A DNA stretch of 32,000 nucleotides from the NCBI RefSeq assembly GCF_025699125.1, contig NZ_JAILWC010000004.1, positions 63,374 to 95,373 of the forward strand, written 5' to 3'. Position 1 is the stretch's first letter. The number at the start of each line of letters is the position of its first letter. Below, in pieces: positions 4,229 to 31,317 of the stretch. The notes beneath the pieces are model-generated. The model was not told where the DNA came from. It made no database searches and worked only from the letters and a program-made list of their open reading frames with translations. A program made the position numbers and the translations under genes. Source of the DNA: Nitrosopumilus sp. (GTDB lineage: Archaea; Thermoproteota; Nitrososphaeria; Nitrososphaerales; Nitrosopumilaceae).

Positions 4229-4329
4229 TGCAGAGGGTGGGATTTGAACCCACGAACTCCTGAGAGAAGGGATTTCCTATTATGAAGATCTTGAGTCCCT
4301 CTCGGTTGACCGGGCTTCGATACCTCTGC
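4229..4329 (-). tRNA. tRNA-Leu(CAA) with a ~16-nt intron in the anticodon loop
   Basis: Hand-folded on the reverse strand: acceptor GCAGAGG/CCTCTGC, D stem TCG/CGA, anticodon stem AGGGA/TCCCT, loop CTCAAG[intron ~4273-4289]A. Long variable arm CTCTCAGGAGTTC (class II), T arm GTGGG-TTCAAAT-CCCAC, discriminator A, no encoded CCA. Confidence 0.85.
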
Positions 4330-18280: not shown

Positions 18281-18288
18281 CTATATAG
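18281..18288. promoter_or_regulatory. CTATATAG palindrome (fourth copy in the window)
   Basis: Read directly (CTATATAGA). Lies in the ORF-poor 17.9-18.5 kb spacer, 73 bp upstream of a 54-aa minus-strand micro-ORF. Confidence 0.3.
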
Positions 18289-18296
18289 AAAAAAGT

Positions 18297-18419
18297 TCAT
18301 CCAAGCTTGTTACAAATATCGTCACAGTTTGGACAAAATAATATATCGTCTGCAAACTTTCCACGTCTTAAAATCTCGGTTTCATTATTTCCACATTTTT
18401 CACATTGTATTTTTTGCAT
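18297..18419 (-). CDS. Small zinc-ribbon protein (40 aa), not in the ORF track
   Basis: My translation is MQKIQCEKCGNNETEILRRGKFADDILFCPNCDDICNKLG*. It has two CxxC knuckles (C6/C9 and C29/C32) plus C36. Confidence 0.45.
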   Translation of the reverse strand: MQKIQCEKCGNNETEILRRGKFADDILFCPNCDDICNKLG

Positions 18420-22006: not shown

Positions 22007-22666
22007 TCAGTCTTGTTTTGTATGTGATGCTATTCGTTCTTCACTAGGGCGGTGTTTTCCAGTAACTATGTAATTTATTGCATCACTCATGAATACGGCA
22101 TGATCACCAATTCGTTCCAAATATCTAAGCAATAGTGCCTCTGCCAAAGCACATTTTGTATTATTTGATTCAATTAGTTTTGGCAATCGTTCTTTGTATA
22201 TCCTATCAATTACTTTTTCATCTTCTCTGATTTTGATTGCTTTGCGAACATCAAGTTCTGCAAAAGACAACACAGCTTCTTTTATCATGTGTTTTACTTT
22301 TTTTGTGGATTCAATAAGTGAAGCATTGGTACATTTTGAGACATCACCAAACAAATCTCTAACTTGGGTTATATCATAAGCATATCTTCCAAATCTAGAA
22401 AAAGCATAAGATATTTCAGTGGAAGATCTTATGAATCTAAAATCATCTGCAACTGGCTGGTATTTTAAAAGCATGTCAAAGGTTAAATCTTCAACTTCAT
22501 AGTATTTTGAACGAATGGAATTAGACAATGAATGAACTTTATCTATTGTGTTTGTTCCATCAAGATAAGAGTCAATTGCAAGAGATATTGATTCGACTAC
22601 CATATCACCCATCTCCCCCATGATAAAAGAGAGTTTTTGAAGAGAAGGATCAATTAATCGAGTCAT
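22007..22666 (-). CDS. phoU: Phosphate transport system regulatory protein PhoU
   Basis: Two PhoU repeats with RFGRYAYDI and ERIGDHAVFM helices. Lies immediately after pstB. Confidence 0.85.
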   Translation of the reverse strand: MTRLIDPSLQKLSFIMGEMGDMVVESISLAIDSYLDGTNTIDKVHSLSNSIRSKYYEVEDLTFDMLLKYQPVADDFRFIRSSTEISYAFSRFGRYAYDITQVRDLFGDVSKCTNASLIESTKKVKHMIKEAVLSFAELDVRKAIKIREDEKVIDRIYKERLPKLIESNNTKCALAEALLLRYLERIGDHAVFMSDAINYIVTGKHRPSEERIASHTKQD

Positions 22667-23500
22667 TTATCCGAAATGCCCCTGTACATATTTTGCAGTC
22701 AAATCATTTTTTGGATCTGTAAAGAGTTTTTTTGTTTCTCTAAATTCAATTAGGTCACCCAAATACATGAAACCAGTGTAATCAGACACTCTGACTGCCT
22801 GTTGCATGTTATGTGTTACAATGATTATGGTATACTCTTTTTTTAATTCGGTAATTGTTTCTTCAATTTTTTGAGTTGCAATAGGATCGAGTGCGGATGC
22901 TGGTTCGTCCATCAATAAAACTTCAGGTTGTATTGCCAACGCCCGCGCAATACATAGACGTTGTTGTTGGCCTCCAGACAACTCAATAGCAGATTTGTTC
23001 AAGTCATTTTTTACTTCATCCCACAAATAAGCCATTTTTAGCGAATCTTCTACTATTTCATTTAGAATTTTTTTATCACGCACGCCGTTTAGTTTCAAAC
23101 CTGCTGTAACATTATCATAAATGGACATTGTTGGGAATGGGTTTGGTTTTTGAAAGACCATCCCAACTTTTCTTCGGTGATAAATAGGATCTATGGATTT
23201 ATCATAAAGATCAATGTTATCAATCATAACTTTCCCTTCAACTTTGGCATTTTTTGTCATATCATGCATTCTGTTAAGACATCGCAGGAAGGTAGTTTTG
23301 CCACATCCGGATGGACCAATAAGGGCCGTAACAGATTTTTCTTTAAACTTCATTGTAACGTTTTTGACTGCAGGAATCCCATCATATCTAATTGTGACAT
23401 TTTCTGCAACCATTTTGTATTTTTCAGAATCAACAACAGATGATGGAGTTGATGGGATTTGTTCTTCGGTGTTTGCAGGTTTAATACTCAATGCAGTCAA
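22667..23500 (-). CDS. pstB: Phosphate ABC transporter ATP-binding protein
   Basis: Walker [10 protein letters not shown], signature LSGGQQQR and Walker [13 protein letters not shown], plus the PstB-typical tail KYVQGHFG. Confidence 0.92.
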
Positions 23501-24429
23501 TTTTTAGCATGCATTCCTTTCTTAATTAATTGTCCGAAAATTCCTTGCTTTCCCTTCCTATTTGCAAAAAAGTATCTAACTGCCAGATTAATTCCCAGAA
23601 TTATTATAATTAAAACTAGAGCAGAACCCCAACCCTGTAATTGCGCACTGTCATAAGGCAGTAAAGACAATCTCCAAATTCTCAAAGGCAGTGCATCCAT
23701 TGGAACATCCATGCTGCTAAAGAATTGGCTGCTTCCAAGAATAGTCATAATTAACGGAGCGGTTTCACCACCAATTCTCGATACAGACAATAAAATTCCA
23801 GTAATCATTCCGCTTTTTGCAGCAGAAATTACAATTCTAAAAGTAATTACCCATTTTTTCAAACCCAGAGCAGTTCCAGCTTCACGATAAGTCACAGGAA
23901 CCATTTTCAGAGATTCTTCAGTAGTTCTTGCAACAATGGGGAACATGATTAAAGATAATGCAAATGCACCTGCCCATACTGAAAAATGACCAAGAAGTAA
24001 CACAATTACTAAAAATGCAAAGATACCAAGAACAATAGATGGGAATTCCATGAACACATCATTGAAGAATCTTATATTTCGTGCAAGCCTATTGTCGCCA
24101 TATTCAGATAGATAAATTCCAGACATGACACCTATCGGAACTCCAATTAAGCTTGAGAGCCCAATTATTATCAAAGTGCCCTGAATTGCAGGTCCAATGC
24201 CACCTTCACCAGAACCAATAGAGCCAGGTACTTCGGTTAAAAATTCATAGCTTATTGCAGCAAATCCATTTTTGAATACTTCGACTAGAATGCTTCCAAG
24301 AGGAATAATTGCAATTATTACACATGCAAAAACTATGATTCGAACTATTTTATCAACAACAAGTCTTTTCTCAACATTATTTTTGAATAGAGCCCTATAC
24401 TCTTGCCTTTTTTCATTAGTAGTACTCAA
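23497..24429 (-). CDS. pstA: Phosphate ABC transporter permease PstA
   Basis: Six-TM BPD-transporter permease with an EAA-like loop ([13 protein letters not shown]). Overlaps pstC and pstB by 4 nt each. Confidence 0.85.
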
Positions 24430-25403
24430 TTGTTAATTGCACCCTCCTTTACTTTCATCATTCTAGTAACCAGCAAGTGTGCAACTACATTGATTGCAAT
24501 TGCAATGAGTAAAAGAACTAACGCAACTCCAATCAAAGCAGGAAGATGCAATGATGCAGGGGATGCTTCAACAAATTCATTTGCGATGATACTAGACATT
24601 GTTTGACTTGGTTTGAATAGAGACGAAGGGATTGCAGCTATACCAGTTGCATTGCCAATCAACATTGTCACTGCCATTGTTTCACCAACAGCTCTTCCGA
24701 GTCCAAGAATCGACGCACCAATCAAGCCAGTTTTAGAGTACGGAAATACAGCTAGCTTGAACATTTCCCATTTTGTTGCACCTAACATGTATGCAGCTTC
24801 TCTTTGTTGTTGAGGTACTGCTTTCATTACTTCACGAGATACTGCTGAAACGGTTGGAATAATCATTATAGCTAAAATTACACTTGCAGTAATTATGTCA
24901 AGGCCAAAAGGAGTTCCCGAGAATAAAAATATGGAATCACCAAATAAATCGTGCAGTGGTTCTTCAACCCAGTCCTTAAAGTAAATTCTAAAAACAAAAA
25001 GTCCCCATAGTCCATAAATCACACTTGGAACAGCAGCTAAAAGTTCAACAATAAAACCCAAAGGACCACCTATTTTTGCGGGAGCATCAGAGATGAACAT
25101 TGCAATTCCAATACTTAACGGAACGCCAATCAACATTGCAAGTGAGGCAGTAACTAGTGTACCAAAAATGTAGGGTAATGCACCAAAAGATTCCCTACCT
25201 TCAACTGCATTCCAATCAGTACCAGTGATAAATGACAATCCATCTTCCTCCCAAATTGGATATGATTCAGAGACCAATTGAAAAACCAACAATGCAATCA
25301 TGACTAAAACATAAACGCCTGCTACAGTTGCGCCAATCTTGAAAATTTTATCTGAAATTTGGCGTTTACCATGCTTTTCAGGATTTAGATTAATCCGTTC
25401 CAC
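24426..25403 (-). CDS. pstC: Phosphate ABC transporter permease PstC
   Basis: Permease with an EAA loop (QREAAYMLGATKWE). First gene of the pstCAB-phoU string. GTG start. Confidence 0.85.
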   Translation of the reverse strand: MERINLNPEKHGKRQISDKIFKIGATVAGVYVLVMIALLVFQLVSESYPIWEEDGLSFITGTDWNAVEGRESFGALPYIFGTLVTASLAMLIGVPLSIGIAMFISDAPAKIGGPLGFIVELLAAVPSVIYGLWGLFVFRIYFKDWVEEPLHDLFGDSIFLFSGTPFGLDIITASVILAIMIIPTVSAVSREVMKAVPQQQREAAYMLGATKWEMFKLAVFPYSKTGLIGASILGLGRAVGETMAVTMLIGNATGIAAIPSSLFKPSQTMSSIIANEFVEASPASLHLPALIGVALVLLLIAIAINVVAHLLVTRMMKVKEGAINN

Positions 25404-25467
25404 ATAATTCAGGCATGAAAATGGAGTTATCTAAGATTTGATCATATTTTATGAGAATGTCATAGTT

Positions 25468-25483
25468 CTATATAGATCCTCAT
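25468..25483. promoter_or_regulatory. CTATATAG palindrome fused to GATCCTCAT, in the pstC <> AbrB-PhoU divergent region
   Basis: Read directly: CTATATAG at 25468-25475 and GATCCTCAT at 25475-25483. It lies 65 bp from the pstC start and 48 bp from the TTG start of the regulator gene. Confidence 0.4.
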
Positions 25484-25522
25484 CTAAATTGTAAATAAGT
25501 AAAATTTCTCAATAGATTTTAG

Positions 25523-26566
25523 TTGGAAACGTTAGAAAGCTCCAAACAAACAAGACGAATGCAGCTTAGTGGAGGCTCCACATACATTATTTCTCTTCCA
25601 AAGAATTGGATTGAAGAGTTAAAGATCAAAGTAGGGGAAAATGTCACGATTATTAAAAATTCTAACAAATCATTAACACTTATCCCTAAAGAGGGGGAAA
25701 ATCAAACAAAAAAAAGTACAGCAGTTGTACTATCCAATCAAAAAGATTCGGGGGAATCAATAAAGAGGAAAATTATTGCAGCATATCTTTCAGGTTACAA
25801 AACCATCAAAATTACAACAAAAGGGATGAGAATTCCAGCAGAACATTCTAGGAGCATCAGAGAATTGGTCAGGTCTACTATGATTGGAACGGAAATTGTA
25901 GAGTCAAGTTCTGAAAACATCATTATCCAAATCCTCACCAGACTTCCAGAATTGTCATTTGATACTGCATTGAAGAGAATGTATTTGATGGCAAATAACA
26001 TGGTGCTTGAAGCAATAGAATCACTAGAAGAGGTAGATATGAGTCATGCAGATGAAGTTGTAAATATGGATGATGAAGTAGATAGATTTGGCCTGTATAT
26101 GAGACGTAATTTAGTTTTAGCAGTAGGAAATGAAAATTTTCTACAAGACATGGGACTGAGAAAACCATCTGACTGTCTAGGACATAGGGCCATAGTTAGC
26201 AGAATTGAAAGAATTGCAGATCATGCGTCACTAATTGCAAAAAGAACAAAATTCATTGAAGGTAAAATAGATTCAAAAATTTTTGTAAAAATAAAAAAAC
26301 TCTCAGAGAAATCACTTGAGGTATTTGAGAAATCAATTACAGCGGTTCAAGAGCATGATTTTGAAAAAGGAGAAAGGGTGGCAGAAAAAGTCAACCAAGT
26401 GATTGAGGAGGAAAAACAAATTATGAGTAAAATCAAAGAAACAGAAAAAAATTCCACAATAATCAGATTTGTGTTAGAAGACTTGAGAAGAATTGCAGAG
26501 TATTCAAGCGATATTGCCGAAGTCGCAATAGATGAGAATATTCAAAATATCATTACTGAAGAATGA
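25523..26566 (+). CDS. AbrB/SpoVT-domain plus PhoU-domain fusion protein (putative phosphate-responsive transcription regulator)
   Basis: N-terminal looped-hinge-helix pattern (GGSTYIISLPKNWIEELKIKVGENVTI). C-terminal half carries two PhoU-type helices (RIERIADHASLIA and LRRIAEYSSDIAE). TTG start at 25523; alternative ATG at 25559. Confidence 0.75.
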   Translation: METLESSKQTRRMQLSGGSTYIISLPKNWIEELKIKVGENVTIIKNSNKSLTLIPKEGENQTKKSTAVVLSNQKDSGESIKRKIIAAYLSGYKTIKITTKGMRIPAEHSRSIRELVRSTMIGTEIVESSSENIIIQILTRLPELSFDTALKRMYLMANNMVLEAIESLEEVDMSHADEVVNMDDEVDRFGLYMRRNLVLAVGNENFLQDMGLRKPSDCLGHRAIVSRIERIADHASLIAKRTKFIEGKIDSKIFVKIKKLSEKSLEVFEKSITAVQEHDFEKGERVAEKVNQVIEEEKQIMSKIKETEKNSTIIRFVLEDLRRIAEYSSDIAEVAIDENIQNIITEE

Positions 26567-26604
26567 TAATTAAAAAAATAAAAGAAAAATAAAAAGAAAA
26601 AAGT

Positions 26605-28206
26605 CTACTCTACGTAGAATCCTTGAGCCCAGTCATCAGTCTTTCTTAAATCACTGGTGCTGGAAGTTTTTGCTTTTTCAATATTGAACATTGCATCATA
26701 TGCGGGATTGTTTGGACGGTATCCTTGACATTCAAAGTCAAAAATATTTTCTAGTGCGAATTTATTTTTAACATAACTCTCTTCAGAGTTTGGATTTGTA
26801 GAAACATCGTAATCTGTTGCCCTACAGCTTGAATAGTTGAAACCGCGAATTTCTTTTTCTCCAGATACTATCTTGACATCAATGTCAACGAGATCACGGT
26901 TTTGAGTTCCAATTATTCCTTGAACTTTTAATCCGTCATCAACATGCTTGTATAGCAATGGATAATCACCTACAATTCCTCTCAACTCAACAGTTGGATA
27001 TGCTGTCTTTCTTGTAAATTCGGTTCCAACATCCTCTGTTGCTGTAAGCACATTACTTTGTTTGAACATGGAAAACTCTGCAGTTTCCACGCCATAGTCA
27101 AAAGTAAATGTGACAAAAGCACTCAAATCCTTATCGGTGTTTTGAAGTGGTTCCTCATACTCATTTACAACCTTAGTTGTTTTCCAAGTAGTATCTCCTT
27201 GAAGAGCACCATAATTCACATTCAATGGTTTTAGACCTGAACATTCAAATCCTAATTGATATGCGGTTACAAATCCACTCTTTTTTGTAAATCCTTCTTC
27301 TTTATCTGTAAGAGTCGTAATTTTTGCACTCTCCACATGACAACTTCTGAAATCGAAGCCTCTCAATGTTTTATCACCATTAGTAAATTCCACTAGTGCA
27401 TCAAAATCATCATTAGATTGTGCAGTTAGTCCAGATACTTTTCTAGCATTATCAATTTTGCTTTGCAACATTGGATAATTATCCAAAACTCCTTCTACTG
27501 TGAATTCAGCCTTAGCATTTCGTCCAGTTTCACCATATCCTGAATCTAGATTAAATGATGGGAATTCAATTCTTTCCTTTCCTTCATTAAAGGAGAAGGT
27601 TACTGAAGTTTTCACATCGTTTGCATATTTGAATGCAGATTCACCATGATCTATAATGGTCCCAGGAGTAATTCTTGCGGAATCATTATTGGAATTTAGT
27701 CCACTACATACAAAGTCAATTTTATCAACTATTGCAAATCCGACACCAGCAAAATAACTTTCATAGTCATTTGAGTCAAGTGTTTCGACTTGATAGTTGT
27801 CAACTCGACAATTGGTATAAGCAAGGGAGATTACATTTTCACCGTTTTTTACAAAATTAGCATCAACATCAAAGTATTTGAACTGATGATCAAATGCTGC
27901 GTTTGAAGAACGGTAGATATACGCCTCATCCATTGCCTTGTGCAATAATGGAGAATCTGTTACTGTGCCTTCCACTGAAAATGAAACGCCAGCATCATCA
28001 ATCATGTTTTCGCCCATTTTAAAAACAGGGAATTCATATGTTTCAGTTCCATCTCTGAATTGAAATGTCAATACCGGCATTACATCGCCAATCATTTTGT
28101 ATCCTTCACTTTCTTCTGCATATGCGTTTGAAAGGTCAAAAGAGGTTACGGCAAATAATGCAACAATGCTAAAAATTGCAATGTTCTTTACGTTTTTGTA
28201 AGTCAT
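26605..28206 (-). CDS. Secreted protein of unknown function: signal peptide plus three tandem ~155-aa two-cysteine domains
   Basis: Signal peptide ..FDLSNAYA|EE. The repeats start at about residues 45, 202 and 365 (VLTFQF / VTFSF / VTFTF). Cys pairs fall at 133/167, 289/322 and 461/493. No family recognised. Confidence 0.75.
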   Translation of the reverse strand: MTYKNVKNIAIFSIVALFAVTSFDLSNAYAEESEGYKMIGDVMPVLTFQFRDGTETYEFPVFKMGENMIDDAGVSFSVEGTVTDSPLLHKAMDEAYIYRSSNAAFDHQFKYFDVDANFVKNGENVISLAYTNCRVDNYQVETLDSNDYESYFAGVGFAIVDKIDFVCSGLNSNNDSARITPGTIIDHGESAFKYANDVKTSVTFSFNEGKERIEFPSFNLDSGYGETGRNAKAEFTVEGVLDNYPMLQSKIDNARKVSGLTAQSNDDFDALVEFTNGDKTLRGFDFRSCHVESAKITTLTDKEEGFTKKSGFVTAYQLGFECSGLKPLNVNYGALQGDTTWKTTKVVNEYEEPLQNTDKDLSAFVTFTFDYGVETAEFSMFKQSNVLTATEDVGTEFTRKTAYPTVELRGIVGDYPLLYKHVDDGLKVQGIIGTQNRDLVDIDVKIVSGEKEIRGFNYSSCRATDYDVSTNPNSEESYVKNKFALENIFDFECQGYRPNNPAYDAMFNIEKAKTSSTSDLRKTDDWAQGFYVE

Positions 28207-28240
28207 TGAGAAACAAAAAAGAAATACAACCTATAAGCTG

Positions 28241-28298
28241 GATCCTCATTTTATCCGAGTGGAACATATGTGTAGATAGTACTCGTAATACTATATAG
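28241..28298. promoter_or_regulatory. GATCCTCAT (28241-28249) and CTATATAG (28291-28298) upstream of the triple-repeat gene
   Basis: Read directly. These are the same two words as in the pstC/regulator spacer. CTATATAG lies 85 bp upstream of the ATG at 28206. Confidence 0.35.
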
Positions 28299-28330
28299 AG
28301 AATTTTTAATTCTAAAAATTTGTTTCAAGA

Positions 28331-28390
28331 AATTAAAATAAAATTTAAGAACAAACTAAATTAAAAAAATAAAATTAAAAAGAAAAGAGT
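28331..28390 (-). terminator. Oligo-T-rich tract downstream of pstS (candidate archaeal terminator)
   Basis: On the minus strand, T5-T7 runs follow directly after the pstS stop (for example T7 at 28363-28369). Archaeal termination typically uses oligo-T. Confidence 0.35.
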
Positions 28391-29641
28391 TTAGACTTTG
28401 AGAATTCCTTGTTTAATTAGGAATTGTAGTCCGTTGATGTAGTCTTGATCAGATATCAGTCCTTCTGACCACCATTTTGCATTGTCTCTGATCCATTTTG
28501 GAATCTCTAGCGATCCAGTGCTTGTTGCTTTGTAATCCCAAAGCTTTTCGCCATCATACGTTACTTTGGATAATCCCTGTTTTCCTAGTTCTACAACCTT
28601 ATCGGCAAGTGGAACATATAGTAAACTTGAGGAGAATTCTTGACCATCAGTTATCATCCAATGAATCATGTGGATTACAGCTTTTGCTTGATCTTTGTTT
28701 TTAGTTACTTGTTTCAGATCATCATATACAAGAAGATATGTGAAGCTTGCAATCGGATATGAATCTGGACCGGGGGCATTAACAATTGTTACATGAGCCC
28801 AATTATCTTCAGATGCTGGCAAAGTATCTGCCACCCCACTAGATGCAGCAGAAATGCTGTCTAATGTAGGTTCGATGAATGCAGTTTTGTCAGCATTTTG
28901 AATTGATGCATAGCTCATTCCTGTTTGGAATGCATATGCAAGTTCAATGTAACCAATTGCGTATTCAGTGGATTTTACAATTCCAGCAACACCTTCATTT
29001 CCTGCGGATGCAAGACCTGAAGGCCATGGAACCGATTTTCCTGCACCTATCTTCTCATCCCAAGTTGGACTTACAGTAGATAGGTAATCTGTAAAGACGA
29101 AAGTTGTCCCAGAACCATCAGATCTATGTGCTGTAACAATATCTTTAGCAGGAAGATTCAATCCAGGATTTTCTGCAGTGATTGCAGGGTCATTCCATTT
29201 TGTAATTTCTCCCAAGAATATTTTAGAGACAACATCTGCTGTTAGTTTTAGTCCTTTGTTTGGAACTTCAGGGATGTTGTAAGCAACTACTACGCCGCCG
29301 ATTGATTCGGGGATGTGTAGGGTTCCCGGAGCTAATTCTCTTTCAGATTCCTTCATAGGTGCATCGGATGCTGCAAAGTTTACGGTTTTTTCAATGTGTT
29401 GTTTAATTCCACCGCCACTTCCAATCGATTGGTAGTTAAGATTTACATTGTCGTATGCATTTTTGTACTCAACTCTCCACAAATCAATCAGAGGGAATGG
29501 AAACGTTGCACCTGCCCCTGTCAAATTGAATTCAACGTTTGGGTTGGGTACATCGGGCATTGAAGAAGCGTTTGCGCTTAATGGTGGCAAGATAGCAACA
29601 AGTGTTGCGATCAAAAGTATTGATGTTATTTTTGCTCTCAT
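28391..29641 (-). CDS. pstS: Phosphate-binding protein PstS with a C-terminal ~40-aa extension
   Basis: Signal peptide, then PstS blocks (GAGATFPFPL, YQSIGSGGGI, FAASDAP, HRSDGSGTTF). It ends with the extra tail IPKWIRDNAKWWSEGLISDQDYINGLQFLIKQGILKV. Confidence 0.88.
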   Translation of the reverse strand: MRAKITSILLIATLVAILPPLSANASSMPDVPNPNVEFNLTGAGATFPFPLIDLWRVEYKNAYDNVNLNYQSIGSGGGIKQHIEKTVNFAASDAPMKESERELAPGTLHIPESIGGVVVAYNIPEVPNKGLKLTADVVSKIFLGEITKWNDPAITAENPGLNLPAKDIVTAHRSDGSGTTFVFTDYLSTVSPTWDEKIGAGKSVPWPSGLASAGNEGVAGIVKSTEYAIGYIELAYAFQTGMSYASIQNADKTAFIEPTLDSISAASSGVADTLPASEDNWAHVTIVNAPGPDSYPIASFTYLLVYDDLKQVTKNKDQAKAVIHMIHWMITDGQEFSSSLLYVPLADKVVELGKQGLSKVTYDGEKLWDYKATSTGSLEIPKWIRDNAKWWSEGLISDQDYINGLQFLIKQGILKV

Positions 29642-29714
29642 TGAACTAACGTGTTTAGAAATTTATTTACAAATATCAATAATAGATTACGAAAAAACAA
29701 GATCATCCTATTGA

Positions 29715-29722
29715 CTATATAG
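29715..29722. promoter_or_regulatory. CTATATAG palindrome upstream of pstS
   Basis: Read directly (CTATATAGA), 74 bp upstream of the pstS ATG at 29641. Confidence 0.35.
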
Positions 29723-29727
29723 ATTAT

Positions 29728-31317
29728 TTATGATTCGCAATTTATCAGCAGATCAGTTTGAGAATCTATTGGAGAGTAACACCCATCAGAGTCATCTCCG
29801 CCATCCATCACATCAGATCCAGAATTTGAATAAAGAATATCATATCCTGAATCACCTTTTAACACATCATTTCCCGAATTGCCCATTATGGTATCATTTC
29901 CATTATTTCCATAAATTACATCATCACCGTCACCACCAAAAATACAATCATTCCCATCATTGCCGTTAATGATATCAACACCGGCCAACCCAAAGATCAG
30001 ATCATCTGCAGATGTGCCTTGAATAAAGTCATCACCATCAGTTCCTACTATCATGTTATAATCAGAGTAAACATGTCCGCAGGCATTAATGGTGATGGTC
30101 TGGTATGTTTCTGCAGTATTGCCAGCATTGTCAAATGCAATCCAAGTAACCTTACTTACACCTAGAGAGAATTCTTCAGGAGCATTATTCAAAATTACTT
30201 TGACTCCACTTTCAGTATCAGCAGCTAATGCCTGACCAATATCTACGAAAGTCAATAATCCAGTTGCATCCAGAATCATGTTGCTTGGGGCCATGATTGT
30301 GGGTTCAATTTTATCAGAAGAATAATCCTCGCGGATTTCAGGTTCGATTATTTCAACTATTTCAGAAACTTCTGGTTCAACATAAAACGGAGTTTCAAGA
30401 GAGTAAATTTTGTGTCCTGCAGAATCTACAACAAGTAACTCACCATTAATGCCCAATGTAATATCAGTTGGAGAACTAAACATTCGAGGATATGGCCCAT
30501 TTTTTTCAAAAATATTAAGAGTCAAACCAATGTCTTGTTCAAGATGTAAAATTCTACCATTATCTGAATTTATAACATAAATTGCTCCGTTAGGATCAAC
30601 TTCAATTCCCGAGGGTGAAAAAACATAATTCAATCCACGAAATTGAAATGACTTTATGAATGAGCCATCCGAATCAAATTTTTCGATTTTGCGATTTCCT
30701 TTATCAGTCACATACACATATCCTTGTTCATCAACATCAATTCCAATTGCAGTAAGAAATTGACCTGAACCCATTCCACTTGTACCAAATGATAAAACAA
30801 ATTCGCCGTCAGAAGTAAATTTTTGAATTCTTTGATTACCAGTATCTACAACATAAACAAAGTTATCAGAATCAACTGCAATGCCATTTGGATATTTGAA
30901 TTCCCCGTCATGTATTCCTTTACTGCCCCATTGATCAGCAAACGTTCCATTAAGATAGAATTTTTGAATTTTATGCAAGTCATGATCTGCAACAAAAATA
31001 AAATTACTACTCACTGCAATTCCAGAAGGATAGTGAAATTCTCCAGGCAATGTTCCACTTTGCCCCCAATGAGTAAGATATTGACCATCACTAGAGAATT
31101 TTTGAATTCGCTTATTGCCCAAATCACTTATGTATGAATTTCCATCTTCATCAACTGCAATAAATTCAGGATACGAAAAATGCCCAGGTTTTGATATTCC
31201 AAACTGACCCCACTCAGATACCAAATCATAATCTCCTAGGGCAAATGAAGATGGGACAAATGCACTAAACGCTAAGAATATTGAAAAAACCATGACAAGC
31301 AGGACAAACTTTGACAA
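29728..31317 (-). CDS. Secreted NHL-repeat beta-propeller / HYR-like domain / RTX (hemolysin-type Ca-binding) repeat protein
   Basis: Signal peptide. Six NHL blades (G.F..P.GIAVD..GN.YV.D..N.RIQKF, residues ~44-306). HYR-like segment (~338-411: P.I.AP....DA......A.D..SGV......F.LG...VTW.A.DNAGNTA). Nonapeptide GxDGDDxIxG-type repeats (~425-510). Confidence 0.8.
   Translation of the reverse strand: MSKFVLLVMVFSIFLAFSAFVPSSFALGDYDLVSEWGQFGISKPGHFSYPEFIAVDEDGNSYISDLGNKRIQKFSSDGQYLTHWGQSGTLPGEFHYPSGIAVSSNFIFVADHDLHKIQKFYLNGTFADQWGSKGIHDGEFKYPNGIAVDSDNFVYVVDTGNQRIQKFTSDGEFVLSFGTSGMGSGQFLTAIGIDVDEQGYVYVTDKGNRKIEKFDSDGSFIKSFQFRGLNYVFSPSGIEVDPNGAIYVINSDNGRILHLEQDIGLTLNIFEKNGPYPRMFSSPTDITLGINGELLVVDSAGHKIYSLETPFYVEPEVSEIVEIIEPEIREDYSSDKIEPTIMAPSNMILDATGLLTFVDIGQALAADTESGVKVILNNAPEEFSLGVSKVTWIAFDNAGNTAETYQTITINACGHVYSDYNMIVGTDGDDFIQGTSADDLIFGLAGVDIINGNDGNDCIFGGDGDDVIYGNNGNDTIMGNSGNDVLKGDSGYDILYSNSGSDVMDGGDDSDGCYSPIDSQTDLLINCES

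Follow-up and report, generated by a model that had tools for sequence, protein, structure and literature searches.

The pho locus and its palindromic boxes

The window analyzed here is a 32,000-nt stretch of DNA (C4:63374-95373) from a Nitrosopumilus assembly (G000; 1.85 Mb, 34% G+C, 99.98% complete). It contains a phosphate-uptake (pho) locus in whose intergenic spacers the 8-base palindrome CTATATAG recurs. Pfam searches bore out the gene assignments of the initial annotation: PhoU, PstB, PstA and PstC, a fusion of an AbrB-type domain (MazE_antitoxin) with PhoU, and a PstS of the PBP_like_2 family. The genes of the locus and the copies of the palindrome are listed below in window coordinates.

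18281..18288, no strand: fourth CTATATAG copy, in a spacer poor in open reading frames (ORFs) upstream of hemL, a non-phosphate context
22007..25403, minus: pstC-pstA-pstB-phoU operon (Pfam), with phoU at 22007-22666
25468..25475, no strand: box 1, CTATATAG, in the divergent pstC / AbrB-PhoU spacer
25523..26566, plus: AbrB-PhoU one-component regulator, the pst-linked paralog (Pfam MazE_antitoxin, of AbrB fold, and PhoU)
26605..28206, minus: secreted protein of 533 amino acids (aa), a likely regulon member, with no Pfam family and with its own conserved box
28291..28298, no strand: box 2, CTATATAG, 84 nt upstream of the ATG of the 533-aa gene
28391..29641, minus: pstS, phosphate-binding protein (Pfam)
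29715..29722, no strand: box 3, CTATATAG, 73 nt upstream of the pstS ATG
29728-31317, minus: NHL/RTX protein (Pfam)

An exact scan found the palindrome at these four positions and nowhere else in the window, in agreement with the initial annotation, which had located three copies in the pho spacers and one more at 18281. Its distances to the minus-strand start codons were also right (25468-25403=65, 28291-28206=85, 29715-29641=74 and 18281-18208=73). The 8-bp core is a perfect palindrome and thus has the dyad symmetry looked for in the site of a dimeric binder. Box 1 lies within a 12-mer, TTCTATATAGAT, that is one base off the palindrome ATCTATATAGAT.

Genome-wide setting and conservation of the palindrome

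Dinucleotide-preserving shuffles of the window predicted 0.27 copies of CTATATAG against the 4 observed, and none of 100 shuffles reached 4. The initial annotation had put the expectation at about one copy per 32 kb, which was too high, and the genome as a whole is far poorer in the word than its base composition predicts: 11 copies were present in 1.85 Mb, with ~70 expected (hand arithmetic). Nine of the 11 are intergenic, intergenic DNA making up ~12% of the genome by a crude ORF map. Phosphate genes adjoin five of these nine, namely the three pst spacers, a DUF47-PiT (pit) operon, with the box (C1:173761) 44 nt upstream of its PhoU_div (DUF47) gene, after which comes a PHO4/PiT phosphate permease gene, and a second AbrB-PhoU gene, with a box 22 nt upstream (C3:217173). 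When the discovery sites were excluded, 2 of the 6 remaining intergenic copies fell at 3 phosphate-related spacers among ~1220 (P ~1e-4, hand arithmetic). The word thus combines enrichment at a coherent gene set with rarity elsewhere, as is generally expected of an operator. The five relatives scanned hold 7-15 copies each and 26-48 copies of a reversed control word, which is therefore 2-5x commoner, and this argues that CTATATAG is not a generic promoter variant. A genome-wide scan was the means by which the initial annotation had proposed that its reading might fail, should the word prove to be such a variant; the scan instead found it to be rare and enriched at phosphate genes. An origin from a mobile element or repeat family was rejected because the flanks of the copies are mutually unrelated.

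The box was retained at the same promoters in relatives (designated by G numbers). Orthologues of the pst-linked regulator are ~90% identical in G021 and G011 and 52-56% identical in G004, G003, G019, G009, G017 and G016. The spacer between pstC and this regulator contains exact CTATATAG in eight genomes (G000, G021, G011, G004, G003, G019, G009 and G017), and a one-mismatch box, ATCTATATtGAT, in G016. The pstS promoter carries the exact word in 12 of 12 same-genus genomes, even in G002, where PstS identity is ~50% and the flanking DNA is GC-rich; no conservation was seen upstream of the box in the same-genus pstS promoters. In other families a pstS box is present in G038, G030 and, as two tandem copies, G035. 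At the 533-aa gene the box stands 83-84 nt before the ATG in G021, G011, G009 and G003, and it is kept in G009 and G003, in which the gene is not linked to pst. All four genomes with a pit operon, among six checked, have the pit box, which lies 53-54 nt before the ATG in the relatives G003, G021 and G012. The second AbrB-PhoU paralog, universal in every relative searched, has the box at -30 to -23 of its ATG in 15 of 15 genus genomes as well as G027 and G038; in G037 and G039 it lies elsewhere upstream. In G012, which has neither pst nor the pst-linked regulator, the box is still present at pit, the universal paralog and a non-coding locus described below. Overall, CTATATAG occurs in several other families of the order, and its footprint has been kept while the flanks diverged, another property expected of an operator. 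The remaining copies show no conservation from one relative to another; they neighbor GNAT, SnoaL, radical SAM, HisI, CBS and Usp genes, and by Pfam none of the genes beside these copies is phosphate-related.

With five of nine intergenic copies at phosphate genes and the same promoters marked in relatives, the Pho-box reading, which the initial annotation had put forward next to that of a TATA element of leadered mRNAs, gains support. Like archaeal Pho boxes of the Halobacterium type, the element is located in the promoters of phosphate transporters (pstS, pstCAB-phoU and DUF47-PiT), both in this genome and in relatives. We are confident that CTATATAG is a phosphate-regulon cis element of some kind.

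The two transporter systems are arranged differently among genomes. The pit operon of this genome lies on a separate contig (C1:172091-173716); in G021 the DUF47-PiT operon is directly downstream of phoU, and pst and pit form one island (L031 11626-12300; G021:C1:642025-642712).

Core promoters, spacing and accessory motifs

TATA-like hexamers in 627 upstream regions of the genome showed a sharp peak of start positions between -30 and -26 relative to the ATG, indicating mostly leaderless or very short-leadered mRNAs. The initial annotation had judged that the palindrome, given its distance from the ATGs, could not be the TATA box of leaderless transcripts, and this judgment stood. Four genes (pstS, pit, the regulator and the 533-aa gene) have a TATA-like hexamer of their own at -28 to -31 from the start codon, and the box lies further out, at -81 to -74 for pstS, -52 to -45 for pit, -55 to -48 for the regulator and -92 to -85 for the 533-aa gene. 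Judged from start codons, the archaeal TATA position is thus not the place of the box at these four genes and, within the set, is taken by it at the universal paralog only. The candidate promoter elements and smaller motifs of the window are as follows.

25447..25452, minus: candidate pstCAB-phoU TATA element (ATAAAA), ~49 nt from the GTG start, as read from the sequence
25475..25483, plus: first copy of the 9-mer GATCCTCAT, its first base being the last base of box 1
25489..25499, plus: probable AbrB-PhoU core promoter TTGTAAATAAG (TAAATA at -31 relative to the TTG), with conservation in G021 and G011
28231..28236, minus: candidate TATA element of the 533-aa gene (TTATAG), at -30 from the ATG
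28241..28249, plus: second copy of GATCCTCAT, which reads ATGAGGATC on the coding strand of the 533-aa gene promoter
29662..29673, minus: probable pstS core promoter TTTGTAAATAAA, with TAAATA from -28 of the ATG, nearly invariant in 12 genomes
29682..29691, minus: conserved box CGTAATCTAT (ATAGATTACG on the plus strand), a possible half-site between the palindrome and the pstS TATA element

Conservation of the proximal hexamer across relatives was shown for pstS and was also seen for pit, where it is TTTAAT at -28, and for the 533-aa gene. The latter has TTATAG at -30 in G000 and G009, TTATAC in G003, and TTATAG at the aligned place in G021 and G011. The distance of ~49 nt between ATAAAA and the pstC GTG points to a short leader. 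An expectation-maximization search for a generic promoter motif and a consensus for the transcription factor B recognition element (BRE) returned no sharp motif, the start codons being crude and the background AT-rich.

The 12-genome pstS alignment contained three footprints only: CTATATAG, (G/A)TAATCTAT, and ATTTGTAAATA(A/G)A with TAAATA from -28/-29. The CGTAATCTAT box hardly varies among these genomes, and its distance to the TATA element is constant; a clean 10-bp indel falls between it and the palindrome. In the window, ATAGATTACG (29682) and CTATATAG (29715) are 33 bp apart start-to-start. Within this genome the half-site reading of CGTAATCTAT had no statistical support. In G006, pstS (L058, G006:C4:337775-341188) is broken into fragments and its upstream box, now decayed, reads CTATATGG; boxes TAATCTAT and TTTGTAAATA persist at the broken gene.

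The gap between the end of the box and the hexamer is 15 or 24 bp for pstC (two clades), 16 or 17 for the regulator, 16 or 26 for pit, 35 or 45 for pstS and 53-54 for the 533-aa gene. In the window, box 1 is separated by 15 bp from the ATAAAA of pstC and by 16 bp from the TAAATA of the regulator gene. Orthologous promoters differ by clean indels of ~10 bp, as with the gaps of 35 and 45 bp at pstS and of 16 and 26 bp at pit. The nine gaps (15, 16, 16, 17, 24, 26, 35, 45 and 54) fit a period of 9.5-9.75 bp (R=0.89), and 0.06% of random distance sets did as well (permutation p ~6e-4), a value to be read in light of the facts that the TATA-like hexamers were picked after viewing the sequences and that orthologous promoters are not independent. 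A conserved face of the helix is what a bound protein in contact with the basal machinery would be expected to show, and not a TATA box.

Of the smaller motifs, the 9-mer GATCCTCAT had been reported in the initial annotation as a word shared by two spacers. Its two positions were correct, but its significance did not hold up: 0.32 copies were expected, and 3 of 100 shuffles gave at least 2. The second copy is kept in G021, partly in G011, and is absent from G009 and G003, and a second motif is not supported. Each of the six box-bearing regions examined contains GATC at least once (7 occurrences where 1.7 were expected; post hoc P 0.002), and GATC(A/C)T also recurs (post hoc P 0.0006); no unbiased 5- or 6-mer passed multiple testing in these six regions. 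A hypothesis of ATCTA/TAGAT half-sites was dropped, as neither version of its test was convincing (P 0.17 for the hexamer version). The best sites extend the core to a 12-14-bp palindrome, (G)ATCTATATAGATC, found at C2:208881 in this genome and in the pstC/regulator spacers of G004, G019 and G017. The degenerate 12-mer ATCTATATAGAT with up to 2 mismatches gave 136 matches, no better than the 77-143 obtained for control words, and the exact 8-mer core alone discriminates.

The start of the pst-linked regulator gene is itself unusual. A TTG start directly follows an in-frame stop in G000, G021 and G011 (window 25520-25525; L031, L032), and the orthologues with 52-56% identity have an ATG start. 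The TTG, 31 nt after the TATA-like box, would make the mRNA either leaderless, with a start other than AUG, or very short-leadered.

Candidate reader, rival explanations and wider regulon

Two AbrB-PhoU paralogs bear the box, the pst-linked one in this window and the universal one. They are 36% identical overall and have in common an N-terminal DNA-binding stretch of AbrB fold, TR(R/K)(M/I)Q..G.S.YI(I/V)SLPK.WI.EL; PDB sequence matches to AbrB-PhoU cover the PhoU part only, and no PhoU fusion is among the solved structures. Boxes precede both genes in every genome examined, which is the usual signature of an autoregulated factor. The OmpR/PhoB-type domain (Trans_reg_C) was absent from this 99.98%-complete genome, and the same search was positive in 10 of 14 control genomes. 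From these sequence relations, we infer that AbrB-PhoU reads CTATATAG. Taking the proposal as a whole, we favor with moderate confidence the view that CTATATAG is the core of the phosphate-regulon operator in Nitrosopumilus and related ammonia-oxidizing archaea and that AbrB-PhoU is its most likely reader.

The reader would be a dimer or oligomer of AbrB-PhoU, in which an AbrB swapped-hairpin DNA-binding domain is fused to two PhoU domains that may couple DNA binding to phosphate status. At pstS, pstCAB-phoU, the regulator, the 533-aa gene and DUF47-PiT, the box lies 15-54 bp upstream of the TATA element and on one helical face, and the regulator bound there could touch the basal machinery or bring it in. 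Such upstream sites would activate when phosphate is scarce, an analogy drawn from the Halobacterium boxes and from archaeal activators whose sites lie upstream of BRE/TATA. At the universal paralog the box itself takes the TATA position, and this placement suggests autorepression by competition with the TATA-binding protein (TBP).

The most direct competitor of the operator reading takes CTATATAG itself for a TATA box, possibly a strong or specialized one, that serves distal phosphate-regulated promoters with leaders of ~20-60 nt, the hexamers at -28 being secondary or chance. The word does contain a perfect TATATA, its place at the universal paralog in all 15 genus genomes is the generic TATA position, relatives carry it 22-24 nt before unrelated genes, and in this genome a GGGGGG run 8 nt ahead of the pit ATG is a possible Shine-Dalgarno sequence on a leadered mRNA. 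However, pstS, pit, the regulator and the 533-aa gene each retain a TATA-like element of their own between -28 and -31, and no Shine-Dalgarno-like sequence precedes the pstS ATG. The 10-bp indels between box and TATA element preserve helical phase and not a fixed distance to the transcript start. TBP binding would need neither the invariant flanking C and G nor the extension of the palindrome to 12-14 bp, and a single palindrome stands between two divergent genes, 15 and 16 bp from their respective TATA-like elements. The leadered-TATA alternative is weakened by these observations, and we consider it unlikely.

The box could also be a true phosphate-regulon operator that is read by another transcription factor, with the AbrB-PhoU genes as mere targets. 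What ties AbrB-PhoU to the box is adjacency, a placement like that of autoregulated genes, and the lack of a PhoB-type regulator, and a third AbrB-PhoU paralog has no box. Against such a reader stand the presence of a box ahead of each of these two AbrB-PhoU genes in all genomes examined, the occurrence of the box at pit, the paralog and the non-coding locus in G012, which lacks pst and the pst-linked regulator, and the fact that no other regulator gene is consistently nearby. We regard this explanation as quite improbable. A third possibility, that the clustering is a chance or compositional effect, draws on the AT-richness of the spacers and the shortness of the word; it is hardly credible in view of the shuffles, none of which reached the observed count, the mere 11 copies in the genome, and the exact conservation of the word amid diverging flanks.

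Several observations nevertheless weigh against AbrB-PhoU acting through CTATATAG as an operator. The third paralog (C3:142014-142892), shorter than the others and belonging to a genus-wide 328-aa family, lacks an upstream CTATATAG. Roughly half of the copies in each genome are unconserved and lie away from phosphate genes. For a specific operator, 8 bp is a short core, and the half-sites ATCTA/TAGAT are weakly enriched around it (6 observed against ~2.5 expected, P 0.04). The TATATA within the word, its TATA position at the universal paralog and its location 22-24 nt ahead of two unrelated genes, GNAT in G012 and SnoaL in G021, mean that CTATATAG can be an ordinary TATA box. The way in which the hexamers for the phasing test were chosen counts here as well, and the sign of regulation proposed above is a guess from position. 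A bolder version of the proposal would make AbrB-PhoU and CTATATAG the master phosphate switch of ammonia-oxidizing archaea, perhaps of archaea generally, with the protein serving as a phase-dependent activator and as an autorepressor at a TATA site, and with a regulon that includes, as members not suspected before, the 533-aa protein and a non-coding RNA candidate; we put this forward tentatively, as something that may well not hold in full.

The closest known parallel is in Halobacterium salinarum, in which, according to the summary in PMC6560208, Pho boxes of the pst1 and pst2 promoters are reported as essential for up-regulation of pst under phosphate limitation and their action is attributed to PhoU-type regulators (Furtwangler et al. 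2010, Mol Microbiol 76:378, cited therein). Like CTATATAG, these are short cis elements in archaeal pst promoters, and Halobacterium has several phoU-family genes, as Nitrosopumilus does. Halobacterium belongs to the Halobacteria and Nitrosopumilus to the ammonia-oxidizing Nitrososphaeria, and their boxes are alike in context. The Nitrosopumilus box, as read from sequence, differs in that it is strictly palindromic, marks a regulon of six loci and shows helical phasing. A published protein with a predicted DNA-binding domain and PhoU, syntenic with a pst operon, has the architecture of AbrB-PhoU; the likeness is one of architecture, and that report is a prediction in which no operator is defined. 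Sso7c4, an archaeal AbrB-fold dimer, binds 8-10-bp duplexes (PMC5222340). By Pfam, AbrB-PhoU has the same swapped-hairpin fold as AbrB and Sso7c4, and the duplex size of the latter fits the CTATATAG core; AbrB and Sso7c4 are described as low-specificity or architectural binders, whereas AbrB-PhoU would have to read a strictly conserved word.

The bacterial Pho box resembles CTATATAG in its logical role, both being shared elements upstream of pstS, pstCAB-phoU, scavenging genes and the gene of the regulator itself. The bacterial element is a direct 7-bp repeat read by a winged-helix response regulator (PhoB or PhoP) at the -35 region of sigma-70 promoters. In contrast, CTATATAG is an 8-14-bp palindrome of archaeal TATA/BRE promoters in a genome without Trans_reg_C, and it shows neither the direct repeats nor the OmpR/PhoB regulator of a PhoB-type system. 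An archaeal TATA box shares with CTATATAG the TATATA core and the TATA position at the universal paralog, and differs from it in that CTATATAG is palindromic, is flanked by an invariant C and G and, at the pst, pit and 533-aa genes, has a further TATA-like element 15-54 bp downstream of it.

Phosphate boxes at pst and DNA-binding PhoU fusions are already known in haloarchaea. What is new here is the exact palindrome, the depth of its conservation in ammonia-oxidizing archaea, the target set, the dual TATA placement and the phasing rule; a search of the open literature, which did not cover most subscription journals, found no description of CTATATAG in archaeal phosphate control. Ammonia-oxidizing archaea are among the most abundant microbes of the ocean, where phosphate is often scarce. 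To our knowledge, how archaea sense phosphate and regulate its use without PhoR/PhoB is largely unknown. The box offers a handle on the control of phosphate uptake in this group, in the form of an exact DNA word, a spacing rule and a small conserved target set that comprises pstS, pstCAB-phoU, the two AbrB-PhoU genes, DUF47-PiT, the secreted 533-aa protein and a non-coding locus. It could also serve to mark phosphate-responsive genes in metagenomic genomes of ammonia-oxidizing archaea.

Some box-bearing loci lie outside the phosphate genes. The 18281 copy directly adjoins the stop codon of a 40-aa double-CxxC zinc-ribbon micro-ORF (~18297-18419, minus strand) and is 373 nt upstream of hemL; an orthologous copy was found in the closest relative, G021, only, and this copy is at most a possible regulon member. 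In L073 (G003:C1) and L078 (G012:C1), CTATATAG abuts the stop of a 67-72-aa acidic protein, whose homologue in G000 (C1:539092-539285) is without a box, and a conserved 22-aa, very acidic micro-ORF (MK.Y.FDF.ECYDDDDYDFD..) lies ~60 nt downstream of the box. The sole Rfam match within the window was a tRNA at 4229-4329, and the box-bearing loci outside the window matched no Rfam family at E up to 0.1. These loci include C2:208881-209020 (L088 ~1480-1645), where the most perfect box, ATCTATATAGATC, stands just after a 68-aa membrane micro-ORF. The ~110 nt that follow the box are more conserved than the neighboring coding DNA (G000, G021, G012, G009 and G003), and two pairs in the predicted stems show compensatory changes; the locus is a candidate for a phosphate-regulated non-coding RNA.

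The 533-aa protein carries a signal peptide and has ~600 homologues; among the 120 listed, every named one is from Nitrosopumilus. Its AlphaFold model (mean predicted local distance difference test score, pLDDT, 63) contains three tandem beta-rich domains, whose best PDB matches are Hcp and phage tail-tube proteins (template modeling score ~0.5-0.65 on the target), and we assign these domains an Hcp/tail-tube-like fold with moderate confidence.

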